Part shown: piece after piece, positions 3,061 to 61,177 of the stretch
How the letters are laid out: every line of letters starts with the position of its first letter
Numbering within the stretch: position 1 is the first letter of the stretch
Virus record (IMG/VR): IMGVR_UViG_3300012663_000801
Span: 1 to 64,000 of that record
DNA length: 64,000 bases
Source: a virus
Direction: 5' to 3' (one strand)
Made by a program: the position numbers and the translations under genes
The notes under the pieces: model-generated
The model's database searches: none
Seen by the model: the letters and a program-made list of their open reading frames with translations, nothing else
What the model was told of the DNA's origin: nothing

Positions 3061-3303
3061 ATCAGATGAACACATATGCCCGATGATTATCTGGGGCGAA
3101 GAAACTGGAAAAATTGAAAAGCGTAAAAAAAATTTGGAGAATCTGGGCTAATGCGATGGGGCAAAAAGCCCTCATTGATGATAAAGAAGCAGATATTGTA
3201 GCAATCATTCGCACTGTGTTCTGGGTGGTCAACCTCATTACCTGCTTCTTCATTATCGCAAATGCTATCCATCATTGGTAAAAAATTTATAAATATTAAA
3301 GAA

Positions 3304-3732
3304 ATGAACGTATTCATCGATGACATCCGTTTTCCGAAAGATGCTTGGATCTACCCAAGACGAGACGAAAATAAATTCATTATTTCTGGTAAATCCCTCG
3401 AAAATATTTCTGGTATTCCTAATGGTGATTGGGATATTGTTCGAACTTACAAAGATTTCGTAGCGTATATTGAGAAGAACGGTATTCCTGATGTGATCAG
3501 CTTTGATCACGACTTACATCCAGAACACATGGATCATTATTTTGACGTAACATCCAAAACAGGTATTATCGAATATGGCAATTTAAAAGTTGAAACTGGT
3601 AAGCATTGCGCTGAATACCTCATTGAAAAGTGGAAAGAATCTGGTAAGGTCAAAACCCCAGTGTGTCATGTGCATAGCGCAAACCAATGGGGTGCTGCGA
3701 ATATCAATGAAGTCTTGAAACAACTCATTTAA
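3304..3732 (+). CDS. cyclic-phosphate processing receiver-domain protein
   Basis: FIDDIR, ISFDHDL, TG, HSAN motifs; directly upstream of RNA ligase. Confidence 0.8.
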   Translation: MNVFIDDIRFPKDAWIYPRRDENKFIISGKSLENISGIPNGDWDIVRTYKDFVAYIEKNGIPDVISFDHDLHPEHMDHYFDVTSKTGIIEYGNLKVETGKHCAEYLIEKWKESGKVKTPVCHVHSANQWGAANINEVLKQLI

Positions 3733-3778
3733 AAATACAGTCAATCGTTACTTTTAAAAACTAGAATATCATCGCTGC

Positions 3779-4855
3779 ATGAAGCTCCCGAATCCAGAAG
3801 AATTCAATTTCAAAGATTGTGTAGTGCTTGGCGATGATTGCTGGTTAATCACGCCAAAAGAAATCGGCGTGAAATGGACGGAAGAGACTATGAAGTTCCG
3901 TTCAATGGTGGTCCGTAAGTCTGATCATTTCATTGTTTCGCGTTCATTTCCGAAATTCTTTAATTGGTCCGAGCAACCGGATTTGGATAAATTCCCAATC
4001 AATGAATCTTTCTATGCTTATGAAAAGCTTGATGGATCTCTGGGTATTTTCGATTCATACAAGAATCAACTGGTTGCTAGAACCAGAGGAACAGTGGATC
4101 TGAGACAGCTTCCGAATGGACACGAATTGGATTTCCTTCTGGAAAAATATAAAAAATTCTTCGATTACGTAATCCAAGATTCTGAAATTACCTATCTTTG
4201 CGAATGGCAGACCAACAACAATGTTATTGTTATTGGTGGGTTTCCCGAACCAAAATTGTCTTTGATCGGTGGTATCCATAAGGTTACTGGTAAGATGTTC
4301 TCACAATCCCATTTGGATGATTTGGCTAAAGATCTGGATATTCCTCGCCCAGAAAAATATCATTATAATTCCATTCAGGAATGTATCGATGATGTTGAAA
4401 TGTGGGTGGGGAAAGAAGGTGTCGTTCTCTATTCAGAGAGCAACAAGATGCGTAAAATCAAGGGTAGTTGGTATTGCTCTGTGCATCGCCTTGCCACTGG
4501 ATTGCGTAGCGTTTCCCATGTCTTGGAATTCTTTTTAGAGTCACCGAGATTCACTGAATATCAGGAATTTTATAATTATACTGTTGATCACATCGATTAC
4601 GAAGTCGCTGAAAAAATCAAGGATGAAGCACTGCAAATCACTGATGCTTATGCACAATTCGTGAAAGGTGTTGAAAAAATGCGTGATGCTATCGACCGAA
4701 ATATCCGTCATTATGATACCCGAAAGGAACAGGCAATGACTATCCAACAGGAATTCAGTGGGTGGAAGACACCTATTGCATTTATTCTGCTTGATAATCG
4801 AGAAATCGATGATAAGGTTGTTCGTAAAGCAATGGAAAAGATCCTAGATATTTAA
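3779..4855 (+). CDS. T4 Rnl1-like RNA ligase
   Basis: FPKFFN, EKLDGSL (adenylation motif I), EGVV, KIK motifs. Confidence 0.85.
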   Translation: MKLPNPEEFNFKDCVVLGDDCWLITPKEIGVKWTEETMKFRSMVVRKSDHFIVSRSFPKFFNWSEQPDLDKFPINESFYAYEKLDGSLGIFDSYKNQLVARTRGTVDLRQLPNGHELDFLLEKYKKFFDYVIQDSEITYLCEWQTNNNVIVIGGFPEPKLSLIGGIHKVTGKMFSQSHLDDLAKDLDIPRPEKYHYNSIQECIDDVEMWVGKEGVVLYSESNKMRKIKGSWYCSVHRLATGLRSVSHVLEFFLESPRFTEYQEFYNYTVDHIDYEVAEKIKDEALQITDAYAQFVKGVEKMRDAIDRNIRHYDTRKEQAMTIQQEFSGWKTPIAFILLDNREIDDKVVRKAMEKILDI

Positions 4856-4892: not shown

Positions 4893-5330
4893 ATGTTGAA
4901 CAAAATTAAAGAAGATACTGTCAAAGCCATGCGCGAAAAGACCCAATTGGATTTGGGTGTGTTGCGAATGTTGAAGAGTGCGATTGAGAATGCTCAAATT
5001 GCTAAAAAGGGTGAACTCTCTTCTGCTGAGATTGTCGGTCTAATTCGTAAACAAATCACACAGCGGCAGGATTCTGCTGATCAATTCCGCAATGGTGGAA
5101 GAGAAGAATTAGCAAATAAAGAATTGGCAGAGATTTCCGTTCTTCAGGGATATCTACCAGTCGAATGGTCCGATGAACAGTTGGAAACCAATGTCCAATT
5201 GGCTATTGACAATCTCGGAGCATCTGGTAAAAAGGACATGGGCCGAGTGATCAAAGCTGTCGCTGAATCCGCCAATGGACAATGTGACAACAAGAGAATC
5301 TCGCAAATCGTAGCTAAAAAATTAAATTAA
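4893..5330 (+). CDS. GatB/YqeY domain protein
   Basis: AMR..LRMLKSAI, GREELANKELAEI, KDMGRVIK. Confidence 0.9.
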   Translation: MLNKIKEDTVKAMREKTQLDLGVLRMLKSAIENAQIAKKGELSSAEIVGLIRKQITQRQDSADQFRNGGREELANKELAEISVLQGYLPVEWSDEQLETNVQLAIDNLGASGKKDMGRVIKAVAESANGQCDNKRISQIVAKKLN

Positions 5331-8730: not shown

Positions 8731-8962
8731 GTTGAGGATGGCACCTTTAGAAGAAGGTGGAACGGCTGTTATCGATTATGATCCTGCTTTCCATCACATG
8801 ATGGAAGAAAGTATCGTGCATTGTGGTAGGGAAGATTTGATATTGTGTTCCGTTCCTTCGGTGCATCCGGGGCAATACTCCATGCACTTGATCAGCGATA
8901 ATAACGACTTGACAAATTGGTGGGATAGTGTTAAGATAATTAGTGAAAAATATGCAAACTGA
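8720..8962 (+). CDS. hypothetical protein
   Basis: overlapping ORF in run. Confidence 0.6.
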   Translation: MDYKLRMAPLEEGGTAVIDYDPAFHHMMEESIVHCGREDLILCSVPSVHPGQYSMHLISDNNDLTNWWDSVKIISEKYAN

Positions 8963-9338
8963 CATTACAATCCCTCTCGATCTTTTCAATGGCGAATACT
9001 CTTTGGATGAAATTGCCACAATGTGTATACTTTTTGCTTCACCGCATCTTTCGGAAAAAACTAGGATACAATGGGCAGACAATCAAACCTGCAACGATGT
9101 AACTGAAAAATTGATTCAAGAAGGTATCATCACTATCCACGAAGATAAAATCGAAATCGATATAAGCAAAAAAATTCCGATGAGTATCACTGATAAAATC
9201 GAAAACATCCTAATCAATTCCAATCTCAATCGAGAAACCATTAACGAGGTGTTGGATCTGGTCGAATCGATTCCACAAGAATCTTCGGAAACATCAGAGT
9301 CAATAGTTCGAACCTACGGTAAAAAAGAAGACTATTGA
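8952..9338 (+). CDS. hypothetical protein containing an internal promoter repeat (~9056)
   Basis: ORF in run. Confidence 0.55.
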   Translation: MQTDITIPLDLFNGEYSLDEIATMCILFASPHLSEKTRIQWADNQTCNDVTEKLIQEGIITIHEDKIEIDISKKIPMSITDKIENILINSNLNRETINEVLDLVESIPQESSETSESIVRTYGKKEDY

Positions 9339-9362
9339 CAAACACGAAAACAGTGTTAAATT
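9335..9362 (+). promoter_or_regulatory. sigma70-like promoter for RNA array
   Basis: TTGACA-N16-TAAATT with TG extension; predicted start about 9369, at unit 1. Confidence 0.6.
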
Positions 9363-9369
9363 AATTTCA

Positions 9370-9626
9370 AGCAAAGAGAGTTCCTAACATATATTAACAA
9401 ATACGAAAATACTCTCCGCTAAAATTTCAAACAAAGAAAGTTCCTAAAAAATTTAATTGGTAAAAAATACTTTCCGTTTGAACAACTTTCCAACTTTTGG
9501 ACAAAGGAATTTCCTAACATATTTAAGGAAAATTTACTTCCCGTCCATCACTTTTAAAACATAACAAAAACAACTTTTGGGTATAGGAAGTTCCTAACTA
9601 ATTCTGCAAATTTTACTTCCCACCCA
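9370..9626 (+). ncRNA. array of four covarying stem-loop RNAs (Y-RNA-like candidate)
   Basis: units 9370-9420, 9426-9482, 9498-9547, 9578-9626; outer stem, AWA/C internal loop, inner stem, loop starting UCCUAA; compensatory changes between units. Confidence 0.75.
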
Positions 9627-9651
9627 TCACTTTTAAAACACAACAAAAATT

Positions 9652-11445
9652 ATGAAATCCCTCGAATTGTTTAATTGCGTCGTAGCTGAATCAAAAGGTG
9701 AATTCAAGATTCTACCTGAATATGGCACTGTCATTGAGCCATCAGCTTCTTATGCTCTGGCCGATATCGAGAAATTCTTGAAGTCCAAGAAGCTTAACAG
9801 CAAGCAATTGAATGATACTTTTCATAAGTCTTGGAAGGTCATCAAGGAATCTTCCAGAGAAGAATTGTGGATGCATCAGGTATTGCATTATCTGACCACT
9901 TATGGGACGAATTTTGAATCGTCTTTTGTTTATACTCCGAATGAAGATCTGGATATCCCACAGGTAACCACACGATTTTCGGTTATCCGTGGCTTGAAGA
10001 GGGATGAGATTATCGAAAAGGCACTTGATTTGCTTAAATCCGGTGTGGCCCTGAAGAAGGAAACCATCGATGATATCATTGAAATTCTTTCCGATTTGGA
10101 TTATGAATTCACTGGTAAGGAGTCCATCAAGAATAAGGAAGCATTGATGATCGTTTGTAAAACGGTCGGAACTGTTCCAAGCGATCCATCTGAATTCGTC
10201 CGGTATCTTATTTATCTCGCAACTGGTGAGACTCTTATCATCAAAAACGATGATACTTACAAGAAGATCAAGGGGATGACTTCCACTCAAAGACGAGATG
10301 TCGAAAAGGTATTGGCTAAATGTGATGTCGAATCCTTGGCGGAAGTGTTCAATCGTTTCAAACCAATTTTCCTGACTTTCAAGAAAGCTATTGGTCACAA
10401 ATACTCCAACATCATCAATAAGATTTCCCGTCTTAGTAAGAAGCTTCATGTTCCTATGGAGCAAAACATTCTCAATAACATTGCTTCTTGTAAGCTGGAA
10501 GAATTGCGTAGCCAAAAGGATAATCTCATCAAGAATGCAAATTTCTTTCAATTGGCGAAGTGTCTGCAATTCTTGTCACAATCGAAGAATGCCGACTGTA
10601 AGGTTTATAACATTCGAAATGGTAAATCTTGGGTTGAAGAGAAGAAGCCAAATACTCAATGGTGTGATGCGAAAATCTTGCTTCTCCACGATATCATCTT
10701 TGAAAAATTTGGTGTAAATCTGAATGGTAAGAAGATCTATATCCCCGAGGGTGTTTACTATTCTCTCCCAACATCTGAAAAGATGTTCGTCGGTAATGTT
10801 CCGATGGGTAGCATGTTCGTATCCAAGGAGGCTATCGCTATGGGAATATATTGGAAAAATTCAGGTGGTGCTTATGACTTGGATCTCTCGTCTATCGCCA
10901 ACACTAAAGTCGGATGGAATTCACGATATTCCTATGGTGATGGTGATGTCATGTTCTCTGGTGATATGACAGACGCTAGAAATGGTGCCACTGAGTATAT
11001 CAGAATGAAGAAAGCTGATGATGATTATTTGATTCTGAATAACGTTTTCAGGGGTAATGATAAGGGATCAGTATTCAATATCATTATTGGAAAGGGATCG
11101 AATATCGATAAGTCGTATATGATGGACCCGAATAAGGTTTGGTTCACAACTCAAACTGAAACCATTCAAAAGCAAACAGTCGTTGGTATGATAACCAAAT
11201 ATGGAAAGCATAACGCTGCAATCGTTCTCAACTTCTCTTCTGGTTCCTCACAGGTATCAAAGACTGGTGGTAAGAATGATATCATGCGAAAGGCACTTAT
11301 CCAACGCTGGAAGAATTGTTATCGTCTGAATGATGTCTTGGAATACTGCGGTGCAGTCTTGGTTGATTCTCCCAAGGGTTGCGATGTCGATCTGACACCT
11401 TCAAACCTTGAGAAAGACACCATCCTCAACCTGTTTAAAAACTAA
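9652..11445 (+). CDS. 597-aa protein, helical N-terminus plus TerD-like C-terminal domain (possible Ro/TROVE-related)
   Basis: YW..DLDLS..GWN..FSGDMTDA.NGATE resembles TerD; RFKPIFL helical region. Confidence 0.65.
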   Translation: MKSLELFNCVVAESKGEFKILPEYGTVIEPSASYALADIEKFLKSKKLNSKQLNDTFHKSWKVIKESSREELWMHQVLHYLTTYGTNFESSFVYTPNEDLDIPQVTTRFSVIRGLKRDEIIEKALDLLKSGVALKKETIDDIIEILSDLDYEFTGKESIKNKEALMIVCKTVGTVPSDPSEFVRYLIYLATGETLIIKNDDTYKKIKGMTSTQRRDVEKVLAKCDVESLAEVFNRFKPIFLTFKKAIGHKYSNIINKISRLSKKLHVPMEQNILNNIASCKLEELRSQKDNLIKNANFFQLAKCLQFLSQSKNADCKVYNIRNGKSWVEEKKPNTQWCDAKILLLHDIIFEKFGVNLNGKKIYIPEGVYYSLPTSEKMFVGNVPMGSMFVSKEAIAMGIYWKNSGGAYDLDLSSIANTKVGWNSRYSYGDGDVMFSGDMTDARNGATEYIRMKKADDDYLILNNVFRGNDKGSVFNIIIGKGSNIDKSYMMDPNKVWFTTQTETIQKQTVVGMITKYGKHNAAIVLNFSSGSSQVSKTGGKNDIMRKALIQRWKNCYRLNDVLEYCGAVLVDSPKGCDVDLTPSNLEKDTILNLFKN

Positions 11446-11459
11446 AATACAATCCACAC

Positions 11460-11654
11460 ATGAAAGCAAGCTACCGCAAGGTCAAGAATGGTTACTACCC
11501 TGTCATTATTTTCAACGATAAGTCGCGTATGACCCATCGAACTCTGTGTCTGACTCAGAAGTGGGCTGTCGATTTAGCCAATGTCGTCATTTCCAGCATG
11601 GAAGATCAATTGAAAACCAATAAAATCGAAGATGAGATTACCACTTGTAGTTGA
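11460..11654 (+). CDS. hypothetical protein
   Basis: repeat-led ORF. Confidence 0.6.
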   Translation: MKASYRKVKNGYYPVIIFNDKSRMTHRTLCLTQKWAVDLANVVISSMEDQLKTNKIEDEITTCS

Positions 11655-11856
11655 CATTAATCCGAGACTAATCATTGACGAAATGACTAGGCAGGAGATC
11701 CAAGATTTCATTTGTGGGATCGACATGGAAATCGCCGAAGTCAGTTTCACTGAAAAGCTGATCATTCGTTTGATCAAATCAATTGAAAGTGATTTGTCCT
11801 CTGAAGAATGGAAACCCTATCAGGAATTGCTCAAAGCAATTGAATCGACTTTTTAA
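11632..11856 (+). CDS. hypothetical protein
   Basis: ORF ending in repeat. Confidence 0.6.
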   Translation: MRLPLVVDINPRLIIDEMTRQEIQDFICGIDMEIAEVSFTEKLIIRLIKSIESDLSSEEWKPYQELLKAIESTF

Positions 11857-11877
11857 AAACTAGAATACACTCGCATC

Positions 11878-12837
11878 ATGCAACTGAACACGCTAGAAAC
11901 AAAATTTGCTAAATGCTCGTCCATCGAAATCCCTGATGCGTTCTACAATCGCATGTCAACTGGCTGCGATGAGATCGATCTGATGTTTGGAAACGAGTTC
12001 TACAAGGGCTTCATGCCCGGTAGTGCCATCACCATCACGGGCACTCCGGGTGCTGGTAAATCGTCACTTCTTTGTCAGGTTGCACAAATGCTCACTACTC
12101 AAGGCAAGCGCAGTGCAATTGCCTCTGGTGAAGAATCCCATATTCAGATTGCATACACTTGCAAGCGTTTGGGTGTAACTGATGTGGATGTTGCTCATAT
12201 CAAGGATGTTGAGGAAATCGCTGCTGCCATGCACTCTTATGATTTCATGGTGGTCGATAGCTTCCAAGCTCTTCGTTCCAACAAGAACATGAAGAAGAGG
12301 GAATTCAATCAGTATGCTCAGGATCTGCTTCTTTCTACTGCCAAGGAAACTGGATGTGTCTTGGTGTTCGTTCTACATATCACTGTCACGGGTCTCCCCA
12401 AGGGTGGCACTGATGTCATTCATGCGGTCGATGTGAACATGCGTATCACTGTCGATAAGGAAGATAATTCCATGCGCTTGATCGATGTTTACAAGAACCG
12501 TTTCGGTGATACCAAGACTCATATTGCGCTCATGTCGCCCAATGGATTCGATTTCAAGGGTCTTTATGTTCCTCCTGTGGAAGAAGCGAAGTCTAAGTCT
12601 GCCAAGGTTCCTGCCAATGAAAAGCGCAAAGAAGAGATTCTTACTATGGATGAGCCTCCCCATTTGACACTGGATCGTATCTGTGCCAATTTGGGTGTGT
12701 CGGGACAGGTTGCTGGTATCATTCTCCGTGAAATGGTCGGAGAAGGTAAGCTCCAGAAATTCGGTCGTGGAGCAAACGCTGTCTGGAAGATTGTTCAAGA
12801 GTGTAAGAAGATTAGAGAAGAAGTAACCACACACTAA
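11878..12837 (+). CDS. RadA/Sms-like RecA-family ATPase with C-terminal HTH-like region
   Basis: STG..EID, GTPGAGKS, SGEES, VVDSFQ, KNRFG. Confidence 0.85.
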   Translation: MQLNTLETKFAKCSSIEIPDAFYNRMSTGCDEIDLMFGNEFYKGFMPGSAITITGTPGAGKSSLLCQVAQMLTTQGKRSAIASGEESHIQIAYTCKRLGVTDVDVAHIKDVEEIAAAMHSYDFMVVDSFQALRSNKNMKKREFNQYAQDLLLSTAKETGCVLVFVLHITVTGLPKGGTDVIHAVDVNMRITVDKEDNSMRLIDVYKNRFGDTKTHIALMSPNGFDFKGLYVPPVEEAKSKSAKVPANEKRKEEILTMDEPPHLTLDRICANLGVSGQVAGIILREMVGEGKLQKFGRGANAVWKIVQECKKIREEVTTH

Positions 12838-13009: not shown

Positions 13010-14023
13010 ATGATTAGTATTTCTAAAAATTGTGATCCGAATTACTTGGCAACAATTATTCAAATAGATAATATCAAAGATCACCCAAACGCGGAAAGAT
13101 TACAAGTCGTATCCATTTTTGGTGGTGATGTGGTAATCGCTAAAAATCAATTCCAAATTGGAGATACTGCCATATATTTCCCTGTGGAGTCTTGTATCTC
13201 CCAGAAATTCCTGTCATGGGCTAACCTACTGGACAAAGCAGAACAGAATGCTGATGGCAAGACCAAGGGTTTCTTTGGATCAAATGGGCGAGTTCGTGCT
13301 ATCAAGCTCCGGGAAATTCCGAGCCAAGGATTCCTTTTCAAGGTATCCAAGCTCGCCGAATACTACGGTGTAAATCAATCCATTTTTAAATTGGGAGAAT
13401 CTTTTGATACTGTCAAGGATGATCTATTGGTTAAGAAATACATTGCAGTAGCAGGTAAGGTCGGTGTGCCGAATACACCCAAGAAGCGTGTGCCTAAGTG
13501 GCTTGAAGCATCTATTCGGGTGTTCCCTCTGCCCATTCGCAAGCATCTATACAATAGCATCAATTATTTCTATGATGGTAGCCGAAATGGTATTAGCAAG
13601 TTAATTGTGGATGGTCAGTGGCACCTGCATTATAAAACTGAGCAATTGGGCAAGAACATTTTTAAAATTAATCCTGAAGACTATATCGTGGTGTCATCAA
13701 AGTGGCACGGGTGTGTAAAGCATGATACACCAGTCGAAACATTAGAATATGGTAGTCTACCGATTAAAAAGATAGTCGATGAACGTTTACCTGTCCATGT
13801 CAAGGGTTATGATACTGAAGCCGATGAAGTGAAGTGGGTGAAAGTTGATGACTATTATTACAAAAAAAATGATGGTGAATGGTATGAAATTGAATTAGAG
13901 GATGGAAGAAAGATCACCATAACGGGAAATAATCCAGTTTGGATGCCCGATTTGAGTTGTTATAGGAAAGTCGAAAATATTAAAGTAGGTGATAATCTTT
14001 TAGTTCTAAATTGCAAAACCTGA
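13010..14023 (+). CDS. Rnl2/DRB0094-type RNA ligase N-part fused to split-intein N-fragment
   Basis: N-terminal OB-like HPNAERL...LREIPSQG; motif I SKWHG then intein CVKHDT..., block B ITGNNPV. Confidence 0.85.
   Translation: MISISKNCDPNYLATIIQIDNIKDHPNAERLQVVSIFGGDVVIAKNQFQIGDTAIYFPVESCISQKFLSWANLLDKAEQNADGKTKGFFGSNGRVRAIKLREIPSQGFLFKVSKLAEYYGVNQSIFKLGESFDTVKDDLLVKKYIAVAGKVGVPNTPKKRVPKWLEASIRVFPLPIRKHLYNSINYFYDGSRNGISKLIVDGQWHLHYKTEQLGKNIFKINPEDYIVVSSKWHGCVKHDTPVETLEYGSLPIKKIVDERLPVHVKGYDTEADEVKWVKVDDYYYKKNDGEWYEIELEDGRKITITGNNPVWMPDLSCYRKVENIKVGDNLLVLNCKT
13712..14020 (+). mobile_element. split intein N-fragment (103 aa, Cys1)
   Basis: starts at C235 directly after KWHG. Confidence 0.85.
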
Positions 14024-14053
14024 AAAATTTGTAATTTAGAACTAAATATATGC

Positions 14054-15031
14054 ATGAGGAAATTAATCTGCCCATACACAAAAAAAGTTATAAGTGAAAA
14101 AAATCAAATAGGTTCTTACATAAGACATTCATCGAAAAAATTTAATATTGATAAGGAGACTCTTAGATACAATATTTTCAAAGAAACTTATGGTGAGATA
14201 ACATGTAAAGAAAAGTTGGTAGAATATTATATCGAAAAGGAGTATTCGCTACCTTTAATGCTTCAGGAATTCGATCTACCATACAATACGACATTATTTT
14301 TATTAAAATATCATAATATCAAATCGAGAAATTCGAAAGAAGGCACTAAAATAGGAGCGAAAAGAAATAAAAAAACAAACTTAGAGAGATATGGAGTTGA
14401 TCAAACTTTCAAAGTCAAGGAATTTGACGAAAAAAGAAAAAAAACATATCGAGAAAAATATGGGGTAGAAAATCCCTTCGAAAAAGGTGTATGTATTAAA
14501 AATATTGATGAGATTTATATTAAGAAATATGGCATAGGGCACCGAGAATACAAATCAATAAAATCAAAACAAGCATGGTTGGACAGATCAGAGGAAGAAA
14601 GAGAAAAATGGTTGAACGATAGTCTCTGTTTGACTAGATCCCTTGTTAATGAATTACCAGCAGCATCGAATAGGATAAGTAAACCAGAAATTTTTATAGG
14701 AAAAATGCTGATGGAAGAGGGGTTTAATATAACTTCACAATACAAAGTTGGGCGATATGCTTTCGATTATAAGTTAAATGACTACAATATATTAGTAGAA
14801 TTTAATGGTGATATTTTCCATGCCAACCCACAAAAATACCTGAAAGATGATTACATACCTTTATTAAAAAAGAGGGCTGAAGAAATATGGGAAAGAGACG
14901 CCGCGAAAATAAAACTTGCAAAGGATAAAAACTATGACACCATAGTTATATGGGAGTCGGATATAAAAAATAAAACAGATCATCATGTCAAAGAAATAAT
15001 ATATGAAAAAATATCAAACATTAAAAATTAA
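14054..15031 (+). CDS. free-standing homing endonuclease (Vsr/PD-(D/E)xK-like)
   Basis: SKPE, FDY, VEFNGDIFH, IWESD; T(N/Y)xExYGV repeats; AT-rich; TAAATA upstream. Confidence 0.8.
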   Translation: MRKLICPYTKKVISEKNQIGSYIRHSSKKFNIDKETLRYNIFKETYGEITCKEKLVEYYIEKEYSLPLMLQEFDLPYNTTLFLLKYHNIKSRNSKEGTKIGAKRNKKTNLERYGVDQTFKVKEFDEKRKKTYREKYGVENPFEKGVCIKNIDEIYIKKYGIGHREYKSIKSKQAWLDRSEEEREKWLNDSLCLTRSLVNELPAASNRISKPEIFIGKMLMEEGFNITSQYKVGRYAFDYKLNDYNILVEFNGDIFHANPQKYLKDDYIPLLKKRAEEIWERDAAKIKLAKDKNYDTIVIWESDIKNKTDHHVKEIIYEKISNIKN

Positions 15032-15125
15032 ATCAATAAAAAAATTGGAAACAGTTTACGATAGATATGATTTGACTGTAGGCGAGACTTCTAATTTCTT
15101 TGCAAACAATGTATTAATCCATAAT
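15003..15125 (+). mobile_element. split intein C-fragment (41 aa, ends HN, +1 Thr)
   Basis: blocks F and G visible. Confidence 0.85.
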
Positions 15126-15812
15126 ACATCCGCAGTCTATGGTAACATTCTCTGTAAGAAGCCATTCAATATCTTCCGATCCATTGGTAAGAAAATTGGA
15201 TTGAATATTCTTGAAACTGAAAATAGATTTGTCTATTCATCCCGGTCTGTCTTGAAGAATCGCCGAGATGGTAAATTCACAGATGATGTTTGGGGTATCA
15301 TTGCAGAGCGTTTGAATGGTAAGATTCCCAAGAATTTCACTATCTATGGAGAAATTGTCGGCTACTCCTCCACCAATAAGATGGTTCAAAAGAATTATGA
15401 TTATGGTGTGAAGCAAGGCGAGTGTGACTTCTTCATCTATCGTATGACCGAGAATACTTACAACGGTGTTCGCGAGTGTTCTTGGGATGAAATCGAAGCC
15501 TTCTGTGTTGAAAAGGAATTGAAACATGTTCCGGTTTATTACATGGGTGTGGCCGAAAGTATGTTTGATATCCCGAATTATGGAGATGATGAGAACAAGC
15601 GCAATTGGAGAGAACAATTCCTCCAAGCTTTGAAGGAAAAGTATCTGGATAAGAAGTGTGAGTTTAATCCTAAACAAATCAACGAGGGTATCGTGATTCG
15701 TAATGAAAGCGATCCAAACAAAACAGCCTTGAAATATAAGTCCCCACTCTTTATCATAGGAGAGGGAAAACTTAGGGATGAAAATTATCAAGACATGGAA
15801 GAATTAAATTAA
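15003..15812 (+). CDS. split-intein C-fragment fused to RNA ligase C-part
   Basis: YDLTV..NFFANNVLIHN/TSA; then IYGEIVG, EGIVIR, KYKS ligase motifs. Confidence 0.85.
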   Translation: MKKYQTLKIKSIKKLETVYDRYDLTVGETSNFFANNVLIHNTSAVYGNILCKKPFNIFRSIGKKIGLNILETENRFVYSSRSVLKNRRDGKFTDDVWGIIAERLNGKIPKNFTIYGEIVGYSSTNKMVQKNYDYGVKQGECDFFIYRMTENTYNGVRECSWDEIEAFCVEKELKHVPVYYMGVAESMFDIPNYGDDENKRNWREQFLQALKEKYLDKKCEFNPKQINEGIVIRNESDPNKTALKYKSPLFIIGEGKLRDENYQDMEELN

Positions 15813-26482: not shown

Positions 26483-26558
26483 GTCTCCTTAGTTAAGTTG
26501 GATATAACAGGAACCTTCTAAGTTCTAATCCCCCGTTCGATCCGGGGAGGGGACACCA
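26483..26558 (+). tRNA. tRNA-Arg(UCU)
   Basis: cloverleaf, loop CTTCTAA, CCA end. Confidence 0.9.
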
Positions 26559-26572
26559 TTCAATTTTCATAA

Positions 26573-26647
26573 GTGCTTGAAGCTCAATGACCGAGCGGCG
26601 GTCTCATAAACCGTAGGAAGCTGGTTTGATTCCAGTCGGGCACACCA
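26573..26647 (+). tRNA. tRNA with CAU anticodon (elongator Met or Ile2)
   Basis: loop CTCATAA, CCA end. Confidence 0.8.
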
Positions 26648-26679
26648 CTCTCTTTTAAAAACTACAATACAATCAAAGC

Positions 26680-26853
26680 ATGATCGAAACGATTGACATC
26701 ACCCCGACTTGGGAATCATTGGTTCTGACCCTCGCCAGCCTTTATACTGATGGCACCACCTTTGAATCCCGAAAGATCGCAGAAGAGGAACTGTTGAGGA
26801 TGGCGAAGATCGCTGACATTCTGGTGGAAGAGAGGAAGGCACGAAAAAACTAA
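26680..26853 (+). CDS. 57-aa hypothetical protein
   Basis: MIETIDITPTW...; ends KN* inside repeat. Confidence 0.65.
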   Translation: MIETIDITPTWESLVLTLASLYTDGTTFESRKIAEEELLRMAKIADILVEERKARKN

Positions 26854-26866
26854 GGTATAATTCAAA

Positions 26867-26940
26867 CGTCCAGTAGCTCAGTTGGTTAGAGCGGGTTCTT
26901 TATAAGGGCCGGGTCAGGGGTTCGAGTCCCCTCTGGACAA
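26867..26940 (+). tRNA. tRNA-Ile(UAU)
   Basis: loop TTTATAA, canonical D and T arms, no encoded CCA. Confidence 0.8.
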
Positions 26941-26987
26941 CTTTCAAAATAAAATCACATCATGGGAACACTCTGAAAATAAAAAAT

Positions 26988-27277
26988 GGCCATGTGGCGG
27001 AATTGGTAGACGCCGCAGACTTAGAAGAAATTGAGCCTCATTTGAGAAATCTTATGAGTGTAACCTGTCAAATTCGGGGAAGGCTTTAAAATGCTAATCC
27101 CGAGCCAAGCCTTAGCAATAAGGAAGGTGTAGAGACTAGACGGCAGGAACCTAAAATCGAAAGATTATGGTTAAGGGATAGTCCAGACTACAAACGTAAA
27201 AGGTAATGAAAATTATAGTAGTAAGAAAATCTGTTGCCCCTTTGGGCGTCCCGGTTCGAGTCCGGGCGTGGCCACCA
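26988..27277 (+). tRNA. tRNA-Leu(UAA) interrupted by group I intron
   Basis: exon1 26988-27022 ends GACTT; exon2 27226-27277 starts AAAATCTG, long variable arm, CCA. Confidence 0.9.
27023..27225 (+). mobile_element. ORF-less group I intron (trnL-UAA/IC3-like)
   Basis: AATTGAGCC start, AAATTCGGGGAA, AATCCCGAGC, GTAGAGACTAGACGG, AGGGATAGTCC core elements; terminal G. Confidence 0.9.
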
Positions 27278-27290
27278 TTTTGTAAAAATA

Positions 27291-27725
27291 TTACACAATA
27301 TCACGTTTTCTATTTCTAAAAGTAGGCGTTAAGGAATGACAATTCGCACACAACAATCTAAGATTTTCAATTTTGTTATTGGTTCTATCACCATCAATAT
27401 GGTCTAATTCTATTGGAATCATTTGTCCCATCCATTCTTCAAGATTACAATGCTCGCATTTATGACCTCGTTCTTTGATAAGGTGTGGTTTCAAATTTGA
27501 TCCTCTGGTGTATTGATCCCAATCTTTAAGTTTAGCATCTTTATTCCAACCTTGCCCGGTCCAATGTTCTGTATTCACATTTAATCTTTGGAGATTTCGT
27601 TTGATGTTATCAAAATTACCTCCTGCTTTTCTCAACTTTAATTTATCCAATAAACCTGATATGCTTTTAACTTCTTTGGCGTAATTAATAATATCTTCAT
27701 CTGTGTAAGCTCTGTATGCTCTCAT
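27291..27725 (-). CDS. HNH endonuclease
   Basis: CEHC, ELDHIDGDRTNNKIENLRLLCANCH; TAAATA upstream. Confidence 0.9.
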   Translation of the reverse strand: MRAYRAYTDEDIINYAKEVKSISGLLDKLKLRKAGGNFDNIKRNLQRLNVNTEHWTGQGWNKDAKLKDWDQYTRGSNLKPHLIKERGHKCEHCNLEEWMGQMIPIELDHIDGDRTNNKIENLRLLCANCHSLTPTFRNRKRDIV

Positions 27726-27820
27726 ATTAGTATTTAGTAGACACGGCAGTAAATACTAGAGCGTTTACCATTTAAAAAATAAAAACTAGAATATAATCGT
27801 AGCATAATAAAAAAACAAAC

Positions 27821-27902
27821 GGCGTTGTGGTGGAACTGGTAGACACGGCTGTTTCAAACGCAGTTACCTTCGGGTGTGCAGGTTCGAGTCCTGTCAACGC
27901 TA
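27821..27902 (+). tRNA. tRNA-Leu(CAA)
   Basis: loop TTCAAAC, long variable arm, no encoded CCA. Confidence 0.75.
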
Positions 27903-29329: not shown

Positions 29330-30094
29330 ATGATCGCTTACAAAGCCACATACAATTTCAAGTGCCGTAATCAAGAGTATAAAGTCGGAAAGACTTATAC
29401 TTCTGATCGTATGGAAATCTGCGAATACGGATTCCATTTCTGTCAAAAGATGGAAAATGTCCTCAATTATTATTCATTTTCTTCGGATCTCATTCTATTG
29501 GAAGTCGAGATCCTTGGTAATGTGCATACTGAAGGCGACAAGTCTGTTACGGATAAGCTCAAGGTCATCCGTGTCATTCCTGAAGAGGAATACACCGATA
29601 GTATGAAATCTCAAATTACCATCTATGAATATGATGATAGGAATAATCTGATTTCTGAAAAGTATCCAAATGGTAACAAGTGGACTTATGAATATGATGA
29701 ACGGAATAACAAGATTTCCAAGACGTATCCAGATGGTGACAAGTGGACCTATGAATATGATGAGAGGGATAATCGTATTTCCGAGACACATTCAAATGGT
29801 GAAAAGTATACCTATGAATATGATGATAGGAATAATAGGATTTCCGAAACGTATCCAGATGGTGACAAATACAGCTATGAATATGATGATAGGAATAATA
29901 GGATTTCTGAAACGTATCCAGATGGTAAAAAATGCACCTATGAATATGATGATAGGAATAACAATATTTCCACGACGTATCCAAATGGTGGCAAATACAT
30001 CTATGAATATGATGAACGGAATAATCTGATTTCCGAAACGTATCCAGATGGTAAAAAATGCACCTTTGAATATGCGGTGATCACTGAGGAATAA
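29330..30094 (+). CDS. YD-like repeat protein, paralog 2 (about seven 63-bp units)
   Basis: YEYDDRNN.ISETYPDG repeats. Confidence 0.85.
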   Translation: MIAYKATYNFKCRNQEYKVGKTYTSDRMEICEYGFHFCQKMENVLNYYSFSSDLILLEVEILGNVHTEGDKSVTDKLKVIRVIPEEEYTDSMKSQITIYEYDDRNNLISEKYPNGNKWTYEYDERNNKISKTYPDGDKWTYEYDERDNRISETHSNGEKYTYEYDDRNNRISETYPDGDKYSYEYDDRNNRISETYPDGKKCTYEYDDRNNNISTTYPNGGKYIYEYDERNNLISETYPDGKKCTFEYAVITEE

Positions 30095-59524: not shown

Positions 59525-61177
59525 ATGACAAGAGAAAAATACTACTGGTTAAACGAAGATTCAATTAAATTTTTAGAGCAAGGCTATCTTAGAGAAGGGC
59601 AATCACCCATCGATAGAATCCAAGAAATTGCAAATACTGCTCAAAAAATCCTCGGTATTGAAGGGTTCGCTGATAAATTTATTGATTACATGTCCCGTGG
59701 CTTTTATAGCCTTTCCACTCCAGTCTGGATGAACTTTGGAAATGATAGGGGCAACCCAATTTCTTGTTTCAATTCCCATATTGGCGATAGTGTGGAAGAT
59801 TTTCTAACCAAACAAGCTGAAGTTGGAATGATGACTAAAGTTGGTGGTGGAACATCTGGATATTTCGGCGATATTCGTCCCCGAGGTTCTAAAATTTCCA
59901 CTGGTGGTGTCGCTGAAGGTTCTGTCAGATGTATGGAATTATTCGACAATGTTGCCAAGATCATTAGCCAAGGGAGCGCACGTAGAGGAAGCTTTGCGGC
60001 ATATTTACCTATTGACCATGGTGACTTTGATGAATTCATGAAGATTCGTTCAGAGGGCCATTCCATCCAAGAGATGTCCATCGGTGTTACCATTCCTGAT
60101 GGATGGATGCAGTCGATGAGAGATGGTGACAAGGAAAAGAGACGTAGATGGGCTGCTGTGATTAAAAAGCGTTCGGAAACTGGATACCCATATATTTTCT
60201 TCACAGATAATGCCAATAAAAATGCCCCACAAGTCTATAAAGATAAGGGATATAAGATCAATGCGAGTAATCTCTGCTCTGAGATTTTCCTGCCATCATC
60301 GAAAGATGAATCTTTCGTCTGTTGTCTCTCATCGTTGAATTTGCTTTGGTGGGATGAAATCAAAGAAACGGATGCAGTTGAAACATTGATCATGTTCTTG
60401 GATGCTGTCATGACAGAATTTATTTCGAAGACCAAGGACATTCGTTTGATGGAAGCTGCTCATAATTTCGCCAAGAATCATAGAGCATTGGGTATGGGCG
60501 TTCTCGGATACCATAGTTATCTCCAATCTAAAATGATTGCATGGGAAAGTATGGATGCACACTATGAGAATATTTCAATCTTTTTTGAAATCCGCAAACG
60601 TGCTGATGATGCAACGAAAAAGCTTGCTGAAATGTTCGGTGAACCTGAAGTATTGAAGGGTTATGGTCGTCGCAATACCACGACTCTCGCGATTGCTCCA
60701 ACTACGAGTTCTAGCTTTATTCTGGGACAAGTCAGTCCAAGCATCGAACCACTTAATAGTAATTACTTCGTCAAGAATCTCGCGAAGGGTCAATTCATCT
60801 ATCGCAACCCCAAACTTGAAGAATTATTGAAATCTAAAGATAAGGATCAAAAAGAAATTTGGAAGAGTATTTTGCTTCATGGTGGCAGTGTCCAGCATCT
60901 TGATTTTCTCACAGATCACGAAAAAGATGTTTTGAAAACATTTGCAGAATTATCACAAAAAGAAGTTGTGATACATGCTGCTCAAAGACAACCCCATATC
61001 GACCAAGGACAATCTCTTAATTTGATGATTCCCGCTGGAACGAAACCAAAAGAAATTAACGAATTGATGATTTTTGCTTGGGAAATGGGTGTCAAGTCAT
61101 TGTATTACCAACGCTCTTCGAATCCAAGTCAAGAATTATCCAGATCAATCCTCACATGTAAATCATGTGAGGGTTAA
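59525..61177 (+). CDS. nrdA: ribonucleotide reductase class I alpha subunit (no ATP cone)
   Basis: ISCF, SNLCSEI, APTTSSS, KSLYY, C-terminal CKSC. Confidence 0.95.
   Translation: MTREKYYWLNEDSIKFLEQGYLREGQSPIDRIQEIANTAQKILGIEGFADKFIDYMSRGFYSLSTPVWMNFGNDRGNPISCFNSHIGDSVEDFLTKQAEVGMMTKVGGGTSGYFGDIRPRGSKISTGGVAEGSVRCMELFDNVAKIISQGSARRGSFAAYLPIDHGDFDEFMKIRSEGHSIQEMSIGVTIPDGWMQSMRDGDKEKRRRWAAVIKKRSETGYPYIFFTDNANKNAPQVYKDKGYKINASNLCSEIFLPSSKDESFVCCLSSLNLLWWDEIKETDAVETLIMFLDAVMTEFISKTKDIRLMEAAHNFAKNHRALGMGVLGYHSYLQSKMIAWESMDAHYENISIFFEIRKRADDATKKLAEMFGEPEVLKGYGRRNTTTLAIAPTTSSSFILGQVSPSIEPLNSNYFVKNLAKGQFIYRNPKLEELLKSKDKDQKEIWKSILLHGGSVQHLDFLTDHEKDVLKTFAELSQKEVVIHAAQRQPHIDQGQSLNLMIPAGTKPKEINELMIFAWEMGVKSLYYQRSSNPSQELSRSILTCKSCEG

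Follow-up and report, generated by a model that had tools for sequence, protein, structure and literature searches.

What is the role of four hairpins, alike in architecture and different in sequence, that lie between a promoter and the gene of a 597-amino-acid (aa) protein annotated as hypothetical? This arrangement occupies positions 9335 to 11445 of the stretch of DNA analyzed here, the first 64 kilobases (kb) (positions 1 to 64,000; hereafter the window) of the 96,954-base-pair (bp) IMG/VR virus contig IMGVR_UViG_3300012663_000801, which is estimated to be 71% complete. An original prediction, made from the letters alone, proposed that the hairpins are RNA ligands of the adjacent, TerD-tailed protein, acting as Y-RNA-like scaffolds, decoys, guides, or autoregulatory operators. 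We find that the pair of hairpin RNA, which we call the handle, and gene recurs in most of the related phage and bacterial loci examined, and that array and neighboring gene are exclusively linked. We consider it probable that the array and the protein form an undescribed RNA-protein particle, which would be analogous to that of Ro60 and its Y RNAs, although not demonstrably homologous to it. The components are as follows, with scores from R1, a covariance model of the handle fold:

9335..9362 (+): sigma-70-like promoter, TTGACA (9335-9340), 16-nucleotide (nt) spacer, TAAATT (9357-9362), with TG just upstream; 10 of 12 matches
9370..9420 (+): handle unit U1, AGC-AAA-GAGAGU..ACUCUC-C-GCU, with a 3-bp outer stem, a 29-nt loop opening UCCUAA, and a C bulge; 47.5 bits, E 6e-12
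9426..9482 (+): handle unit U2, (UU)CAAAC-AAA-GAAAGU..ACUUUC-C-GUUUG(AA), with a 7-bp outer stem, a 27-nt loop with UUGG, and a C bulge; 58.1 bits, E 3e-15
9498..9547 (+): handle unit U3, UGGAC-AAA-GGAAUU..ACUUCC-C-GUCCA, with a single U.C mismatch; 48.2 bits
9578..9626 (+): handle unit U4, UGGGU-AUA-GGAAGU..ACUUCC-C-ACCCA; 47.9 bits
9652..11445 (+): 597-aa partner protein, with a helical N-terminal domain (residues ~1-360), a TerD-fold beta-sandwich (~390-549), and short C-terminal helices

The sequence details of the original prediction all hold, including the promoter, the stems of the four units, the mismatch in U3, and the 25 nt that separate U4 from the ATG of the gene at 9652. The promoter ranks among the two best promoter-like sites within 8900-12000 and is also kept in the related phages L004 and L007; the position of its -10 element suggests that transcription starts at approximately 9368-9371, at the 5' end or first base pair of U1. 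In the RNAfold structure (minimum free energy, -50.1 kcal/mol; z = -3.3) each of the four hairpins is present. U3 and U4, taken with their flanks, are directly duplicated (identity of 84% over 51 nt and of 82% over 33 nt; spacing, 79-80), as had been surmised, and the outer-stem changes of U4 relative to U3 are compensatory. U3 carries a U instead of the G in a G-C pair that 110 of 111 aligned units keep, and its orthologue in L004 retains the G; because of this substitution in an otherwise invariant pair, U3 may have been weakened, with its duplicate U4 as a backup. No Shine-Dalgarno sequence is present ahead of the 597-aa open reading frame (ORF). The array has no second location in the phage's own 96,954-bp genome: R1 matches four sites there, all at 9368-9626, and the motif AWAGRRARTTCCTAA is confined to the array. 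A DNA similarity search against 50,697 deposited phage genomes gave no match, and the public sequencing runs listed with this DNA are from freshwater and other metagenomes, with no RNA run among those listed.

Do the handles represent a defined RNA fold? A structure-aware scan anchored on TTCCTA detected this two-helix architecture next to almost all of the homologous genes retrieved; it supplied the units for comparison, which were assembled in an alignment (A2) of 111 non-redundant short-loop units. The outer stem ends in G-C pairs that are invariant or nearly so, and is followed by a 3-nt 5' bulge of the form A-[A/U/C]-A (A-H-A) and by a 6-bp inner stem ending in G-C and then U-A (GU/AC); the 3' strand contains a single C bulge. 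The loop opens with UCCUA and closes with an A/U-rich run and a U, followed by AC, and the remainder is freely variable. A GG dinucleotide is located 15-19 nt into the loop in 51 of the 111 units, compared with 19.4 ± 3.5 expected, and is present in U2 and U3; it could pair with the CC of UCCUA. The original prediction regarded the loop start TTCCTAA as invariant. A conserved loop start is indeed evident, but the family-wide invariant is UCCUA, with UUCCUAA occurring only in close relatives and UCCUAU in most others. In the three closest phages, which have three or four units, promoter and stems are either identical or changed in compensatory fashion, and the loops are divergent.

The evidence for the fold is extensive. 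Pairing is satisfied in 97.4% of the cells of the alignment, and falls to only 34-52% in a control in which the 3' partners are slid. Double compensatory changes occur in nine of the 11 pairs, amounting to 334 cells as against 90 ± 13 in shuffles, with none of 500 shuffles reaching 334; RNAalifold, applied to the same alignment, independently gives the identical structure. Because the aligned units had been selected for pairing, we also performed an anchor-only control, in which the density of TTCCTA on the gene's strand is 11-fold higher within the upstream 600 nt (4.11 versus 0.37 per kb), and the strict fold is formed by 75% of the upstream TTCCTA sites versus 12% of those elsewhere, with 'elsewhere' including genuine downstream units. 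The alignment contains 39 G.U cells, and together with the location of all 186 viral R1 hits on the gene's strand this indicates that the plus-strand RNA is the one that folds. Comparison with Rfam (Rfam 15) identified no family matching the handle RNA, with chance-level hits only at a permissive threshold on 9300-9700. We also considered a K-turn, and rejected it because the pairs on either side of the 3-nt bulge show Watson-Crick covariation and are not G.A/A.G.

How consistently does the handle accompany the gene? The loci retrieved comprised 80 viral ones, with protein identities of 32-82%, and 80 cellular ones, the latter obtained with an alignment of 12 sequences. R1 has 186 hits in 66 of 69 viral loci, and two of the three viral loci without a hit have no upstream DNA; hits were obtained in all of the 24 cellular loci tested. 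A covariance model drawn from the homologues' loci places stem-loops beside nearly all of the homologous genes tested, as the original prediction anticipated. In three complete bacterial genomes (3.4-5.6 megabases), R1 finds only three units, beside the gene. The number of copies varies from two to eight per locus, and the array is usually upstream of the gene, although it is on both sides in several loci and solely downstream in L028, L053, L067, and L076. One related phage (L043) has eight or more units in series upstream of the gene (886-1436). In another (L022), a tmRNA gene lies just downstream of the partner gene (3530-3806).

What does the loop contain? The loops of the four window units are short AU-rich linkers without cargo (no tRNA-like body). 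The loops in many related loci hold either an additional hairpin or a complete tRNA-like body made up of T arm, acceptor stem, and D arm, and this cargo occurs in two orders. It is circularly permuted in L066 (1178-1303), L029, and L046, where its ends are at the handle and the acceptor stem is closed by a short loop. It has the normal tRNA order in L037 (1128-1242), L115 (2687-2796), and L120 (2642-2755), where an inside-out handle replaces the anticodon loop; these three score 42-58 bits on the Rfam tRNA model across an insertion of ~40 nt. Whichever the circular order, the secondary structure is that of a tRNA elbow, with the anticodon stem running via a large internal loop into the handle. 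By inspection, removal of the handle from L037 and L115 leaves no plausible 7-nt anticodon loop, and we rejected the idea that the chimeras are tRNAs with canonical introns.

What kind of protein is the putative partner? It belongs to a family with 1377 relatives among 50%-identity cluster representatives, mostly viral in the ESM Atlas, with members in Bacteroidota chromosomes as well. The AlphaFold2 (AF2) model, built with 36 homologues, has a predicted local distance difference test score (pLDDT) of 91.5 for the whole protein. Residues ~390-549 match the TerD structures 2qz7 (VIA Z, 9.4; root-mean-square deviation [rmsd], 3.2; 138 aligned) and 2kxt (VIA Z, 8.9; rmsd, 3.0; 139 aligned), and Foldseek gives a probability of 1.0 for 3ibz, 2kxt, and 2qz7. 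The predicted TerD tail is therefore real at the level of the fold, but with an E limit of 0.1 the Pfam TerD model (PF02342) detects neither the window protein nor any of 35 homologues; in the nearest ESM Atlas cluster having a Pfam family, TerD is found on 22% of members. The TerD-fold domain has invariant acidic motifs at D409, D411, G437-D438, T440, and E448 (of the DLDLS and SGDxT..E types), which we take to correspond to the calcium sites of TerD. The helical domain has invariant basic and polar residues (N161/E163, R184, R235/K237, H266, R322/N323). When folded alone it has a pLDDT of 79, with a best Foldseek E of 9e-3 and a best VIA Z of 6.8 over 75 residues; for this domain, the matches listed by fold searches with the whole model and with the domain alone were generic helical repeats, and nothing specific. 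No HEPN-like Rx4-6H motif was seen around the conserved RNGK or H266. Searches of the 597-aa protein against Pfam, PHROGs, NCBIfam, and PADLOC gave nothing at the family level, and a profile search of PDB sequences with the protein family likewise gave nothing.

We looked specifically for a relationship to Ro60. With E up to 0.1, none of 36 family members is matched by the Pfam TROVE model, TROVE (PF05731) finds nothing in the phage genome but scores in the control genomes of Deinococcus and Bacteroides thetaiotaomicron, and there are no Ro60 structures among the listed fold matches of the whole or N-domain models. Since no TROVE or Ro60 signal was found by sequence or among the fold matches listed, we favor describing the partner protein as a likely Ro60 analogue rather than a homologue, although a distant relationship is conceivable. 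In its main part, that of structured RNAs partnered with the adjacent protein on the plan of Y RNAs, the original proposal is strongly supported by co-occurrence and covariation across phages and bacteria; the binding itself is deduced from these associations.

What do the neighboring genes suggest? The surroundings of handle loci point to RNA repair. Among the 80 cellular loci, rtcB is immediately upstream on the same strand in 61, and rlaP is downstream in 22. RlaP acts on cleaved tRNA halves ahead of their ligation, extending the 3' end with added nucleotides (10.64898/2025.12.29.696909). In Chryseobacterium, rtcB is followed by a tRNA-handle chimera and three handles, after which come the gene, rlaP, an unknown gene, and an R2K ATP-grasp gene. 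Some other loci adjoin long tRNA arrays, and in the Flavobacteriaceae contigs L120, L134, L155, and L154, ~15-25 tRNA genes are directly beside the handle-protein locus; these tRNA-rich loci look like prophage or tRNA-island settings inside bacterial assemblies. L120 also has a Band_7/SPFH gene downstream. The tRNA-like cargo of relatives and the rtcB/rlaP context both strengthen the Y-RNA analogy. The neighbors of the array in the window are as follows:

3262-3732 (+): cREC_REC cyclic-phosphate-processing receiver domain (Pfam)
3779-4855 (+): T4 Rnl1-type RNA ligase (Pfam)
4893-5330 (+): YqeY-like protein (Pfam)
8943..9338 (+): small protein just upstream of the array, with a weak helix-turn-helix (HTH) or transcription-regulator-like match
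11878..12837 (+): KaiC/RecA/DnaB-like P-loop ATPase, downstream of the array
13010..15812 (+): RNA ligase combining an OB domain at the N terminus (PF21189) with a nucleotidyltransferase at the C terminus (PF09414) (Pfam)

The cREC_REC, Rnl1-type ligase, and YqeY genes form a row, a second RNA-repair cluster that precedes the handle array by ~4 kb. A small, weakly HTH-like protein is also encoded upstream in the related phages L007 and L008. The RNA ligase at 13010-15812 is split into three ORFs by intein-splicing halves and a DUF7487/endonuclease-like ORF; ORFs 1 and 2 are in the same frame with a stop between them, and ORF 3 is in another frame, and this intein-bearing gene may be broken, mis-sequenced, or unusually expressed. 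The window contains 14-15 tRNA genes plus a group I catalytic intron (27013-27199, plus strand; 70.8 bits with Rfam), which lies inside the tRNA gene cluster at 26483-27902; a tRNA at 26573-26644 is called by Rfam and is missing from the ARAGORN list. Elsewhere in the window are a nucleoside 2-deoxyribosyltransferase-like gene (568-1137) and two paralogues (1346-2170 and 29330-30094, plus strand) in which DUF7666 is combined with RHS repeats, an unusual cargo for a phage.

How might the components act together? We propose that the handles are a widespread and undescribed family of structured RNAs, in which a conserved protein-docking module is joined to a loop that is free to vary. The docking module would comprise the outer stem and the A-H-A/C internal loop, then the 6-bp stem with its closing G-C and U-A pairs, and last the single-stranded UCCUA. 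Handles would be cotranscribed with the 597-aa gene from the promoter at 9335, with handle 1 at approximately the 5' end of the transcript, and the helical and TerD-fold protein would dock on the distorted helix and the UCCUA junction to form a particle. The loop would then be a free cargo site, occupied by a short AU-rich linker here and by hairpins or a tRNA-like body in relatives. Such a particle may work with RNA ligases in the repair or quality control of damaged or attacked RNA, probably tRNA, in phage-host conflict, and handles within the gene's own leader could also feed back on its translation.

Several considerations weigh against this model. The evidence consists of RNA structure, covariation, linkage, folds, and context, and it is from these that we infer binding, processing into separate RNAs, and function. 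The helical domain has no recognizable RNA-binding fold, and the suggested analogy with Ro60 draws on architecture and context. The array in the window has no tRNA-like cargo, and nothing resembling a terminator was found to separate it from the gene, such that here it could function in cis alone. Units picked for pairing were the source of the covariance model, a bias that is mitigated by the RNAalifold result, the anchor-only test, and the whole-genome searches. Finally, because the cellular loci are mostly from one genus (Chryseobacterium), the linkage to rtcB reflects few independent events.

Could the handles be explained without a particle of this kind? The array lies between promoter and ATG with no intervening terminator, and in most loci is directly upstream of the gene on the same strand, as would be expected of a cis-regulatory leader whose hairpins are operators in the 5' untranslated region, bound by the protein or by another factor and autoregulating translation or mRNA stability without any function as separate RNAs. 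We regard this as fairly unlikely, however, given the two to eight copies per locus and the lack of an expression platform. Moreover, the downstream-only arrays in four loci and the units that sit within tRNA-like bodies with free acceptor ends argue for a trans-acting RNA rather than a mere leader, and weaken the purely autoregulatory form of the operator role that had been proposed; a leader role and a ribonucleoprotein role can nonetheless coexist. It is also unlikely, though conceivable, that the handle is a portable tag that loads any RNA inserted in its loop onto the TerD-fold protein, with the particle presenting tRNA-like cargo to RtcB/Rnl-type ligases and RlaP. This would be a tRNA repair or decoy machine unrelated to Ro60, either mending ribotoxin-cut tRNAs by a 'spare-part' or templated mode, or trapping tRNA-directed nucleases. 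A simpler decoy or sponge, in which handles and tRNA-like chimeras mimic host RNA (e.g., a tRNA anticodon arm) and soak up a ribotoxin or defense nuclease while the protein stabilizes or loads them, is in keeping with a system that is phage-rich and often beside tRNA arrays, with the tRNA-like cargo in relatives, and with the resemblance of the loop start UUCCUAA to the anticodon loop of tRNA-Arg(CCU). We find it quite improbable. Handle loops are 23-29 nt rather than 7 nt, and UCCUAU is found in most of the family, and for these reasons the specific idea of a tRNA-Arg(CCU) anticodon-loop decoy is weak; furthermore, the chromosomal rtcB-rlaP operon of bacteria holds the same pair, so that housekeeping or stress repair is a better fit than anti-defense.

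The combination of a constant scaffold and a variable loop is also the layout of a guide RNA, and loops diverge fast among close relatives while stems remain fixed, raising the question of whether loops base-pair with target RNA or DNA and so direct the protein. A guide role seems very improbable, and this part of the original prediction gained no support, as the fast-diverging loops have no complementarity beyond chance to the phage's own genome. For the loops of U1-U3, the longest stretches matched in that genome are 10-13 nt, and 39-190 of 200 shuffles are equal or better. The 13-mer TAATTCTGCAAAT in the U4 loop has its only other copy at 60940-60952 on the minus strand, where the plus strand is complementary to the handle 4 loop (TAATTCTGCAAAT); 5 of 200 shuffles are as good, which is not significant over four tests. 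The loops are moreover AU-rich and of low complexity, and in relatives it is structured cargo, not a diversity of single-stranded sequence, that takes their place. We give almost no credence to a role at the DNA level, in which the inverted repeats would be double-stranded protein-binding sites or cruciforms, for example iterons or operators for the upstream HTH protein. The repeats are in tandem and adjoin an HTH-like gene, but the stems covary with their sequence free, the 39 G.U pairs would be A.C on the opposite strand, the 186 viral hits without exception share the strand of the gene, and the spacing between arms ranges from 23 to >100 nt. Among the four roles originally suggested for the RNAs, the scaffold fits best, and it is as scaffolds within an RNA-protein particle that we favor interpreting the handles.

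If the pairing of handle and protein is real, the Ro60/Y-RNA design would have evolved a second time, independently, with the same combination of a helical protein with a metal-site domain, modular small RNAs able to mimic tRNA, and a location in RNA-repair operons. The pairing would also provide a first link of TerD-fold domains to RNA biology. The system is abundant, yet both partners are unannotated, the protein being 'hypothetical' and the RNA without an Rfam family. It offers a tractable route to determining what bacterial RtcB/RlaP operons repair and what Y-RNA-like tRNA mimics are for, and these questions are accessible to genetics because cultivable Chryseobacterium species have the complete rtcB-RNA-gene-rlaP unit.

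How does the handle system compare with those already known? Full-text literature searches returned no description of a pair of handle RNA and TerD-fold protein. Type III toxin-antitoxin systems (ToxIN) share the layout of a promoter, tandem small-RNA units, and the gene of a presumed binding protein. ToxI repeats are near-identical 36-nt units, cut by an endoribonuclease toxin of ~170 aa. Unlike these, handle units differ in sequence and covary, and the 597-aa protein has no nuclease signature or PADLOC match. The TerD family (PF02342; 2kxt, 3ibz, 2qz7) has in common with residues ~390-549 the beta-sandwich and the acidic motifs; however, classical TerD proteins are single-domain proteins of ~190 aa from tellurite-resistance/Ter operons with no known RNA partner, whereas the handle partner, at 597 aa, has this fold as just one of its domains. 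A further resemblance is to the MXAN_6230/SCO0854 RING proteins (NF041916), with which predicted Atlas models superpose over 573 residues (template modeling score, 0.75, query-normalized). NF041916 gives no hit on the window protein and weak hits on 7 of 36 homologues (27-47 bits; maximum, 46.8) at profile positions 524-622 of 842, the start of the TerD region, with family scores far under the 600-bit cutoff. The MXAN_6230/SCO0854 proteins are 840-990 aa, contain a Prok-RING_4 domain, and are from Actinomycetota, and the handle partner lacks a RING.

The closest described systems are Salmonella rsr-yrlBA-rtcBA, Deinococcus Yrn1, and the Ro60 of phage phiLo with Yrl1 and Yrl2 (PMC4201824; 10.1101/312249; PMC7790460; PMC12135203). 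Y-RNA genes adjoin that of Ro60, and YrlA mimics tRNA (PMC4201824); in Thermus phage phiLo, Yrl1 and Yrl2 are upstream of the Ro60 gene (PMC12135203). As with Ro60 and Y RNA, one or more small-RNA genes are directly beside the gene of a protein of ~550-600 aa that is helical and has a metal-binding-type domain. Like Y RNAs, the handle RNAs are modular, with a conserved bulged stem formed from the 5' and 3' ends and a variable module that in some is a tRNA mimic, and the layout of the tRNA-handle chimeras is that of the bacterial Y RNA YrlA (PMC4201824; 10.1101/312249). RtcB and other RNA-repair genes are neighbors of both, and both systems occur in bacteria and in phages. The parts themselves are different. 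Ro60 consists of TROVE and a vWA domain bearing a MIDAS (metal-ion-dependent adhesion site), and in the handle partner the TerD-fold sandwich occupies the place of the vWA. The handle does not have the Rsr-binding motif (GNCGAAN0-1G in bacteria, GGUCCGA in vertebrates; PMC4201824) or CGAA, and instead has the A-H-A/C bulges and UCCUA. The Rfam Y RNA and YrlA models (RF00019, RF02553) find nothing in the window at their gathering scores, nothing in 9300-9700 when E is relaxed to 10, and nothing in 20 related loci, where Rfam reported tRNA and tmRNA only. Unlike Y RNA systems, handle arrays have up to eight units, and their tRNA-like cargo occurs in both circular permutations. This combination of shared layout and dissimilar components suggests that the Y-RNA/Ro60 design may have been built here from unrelated parts.

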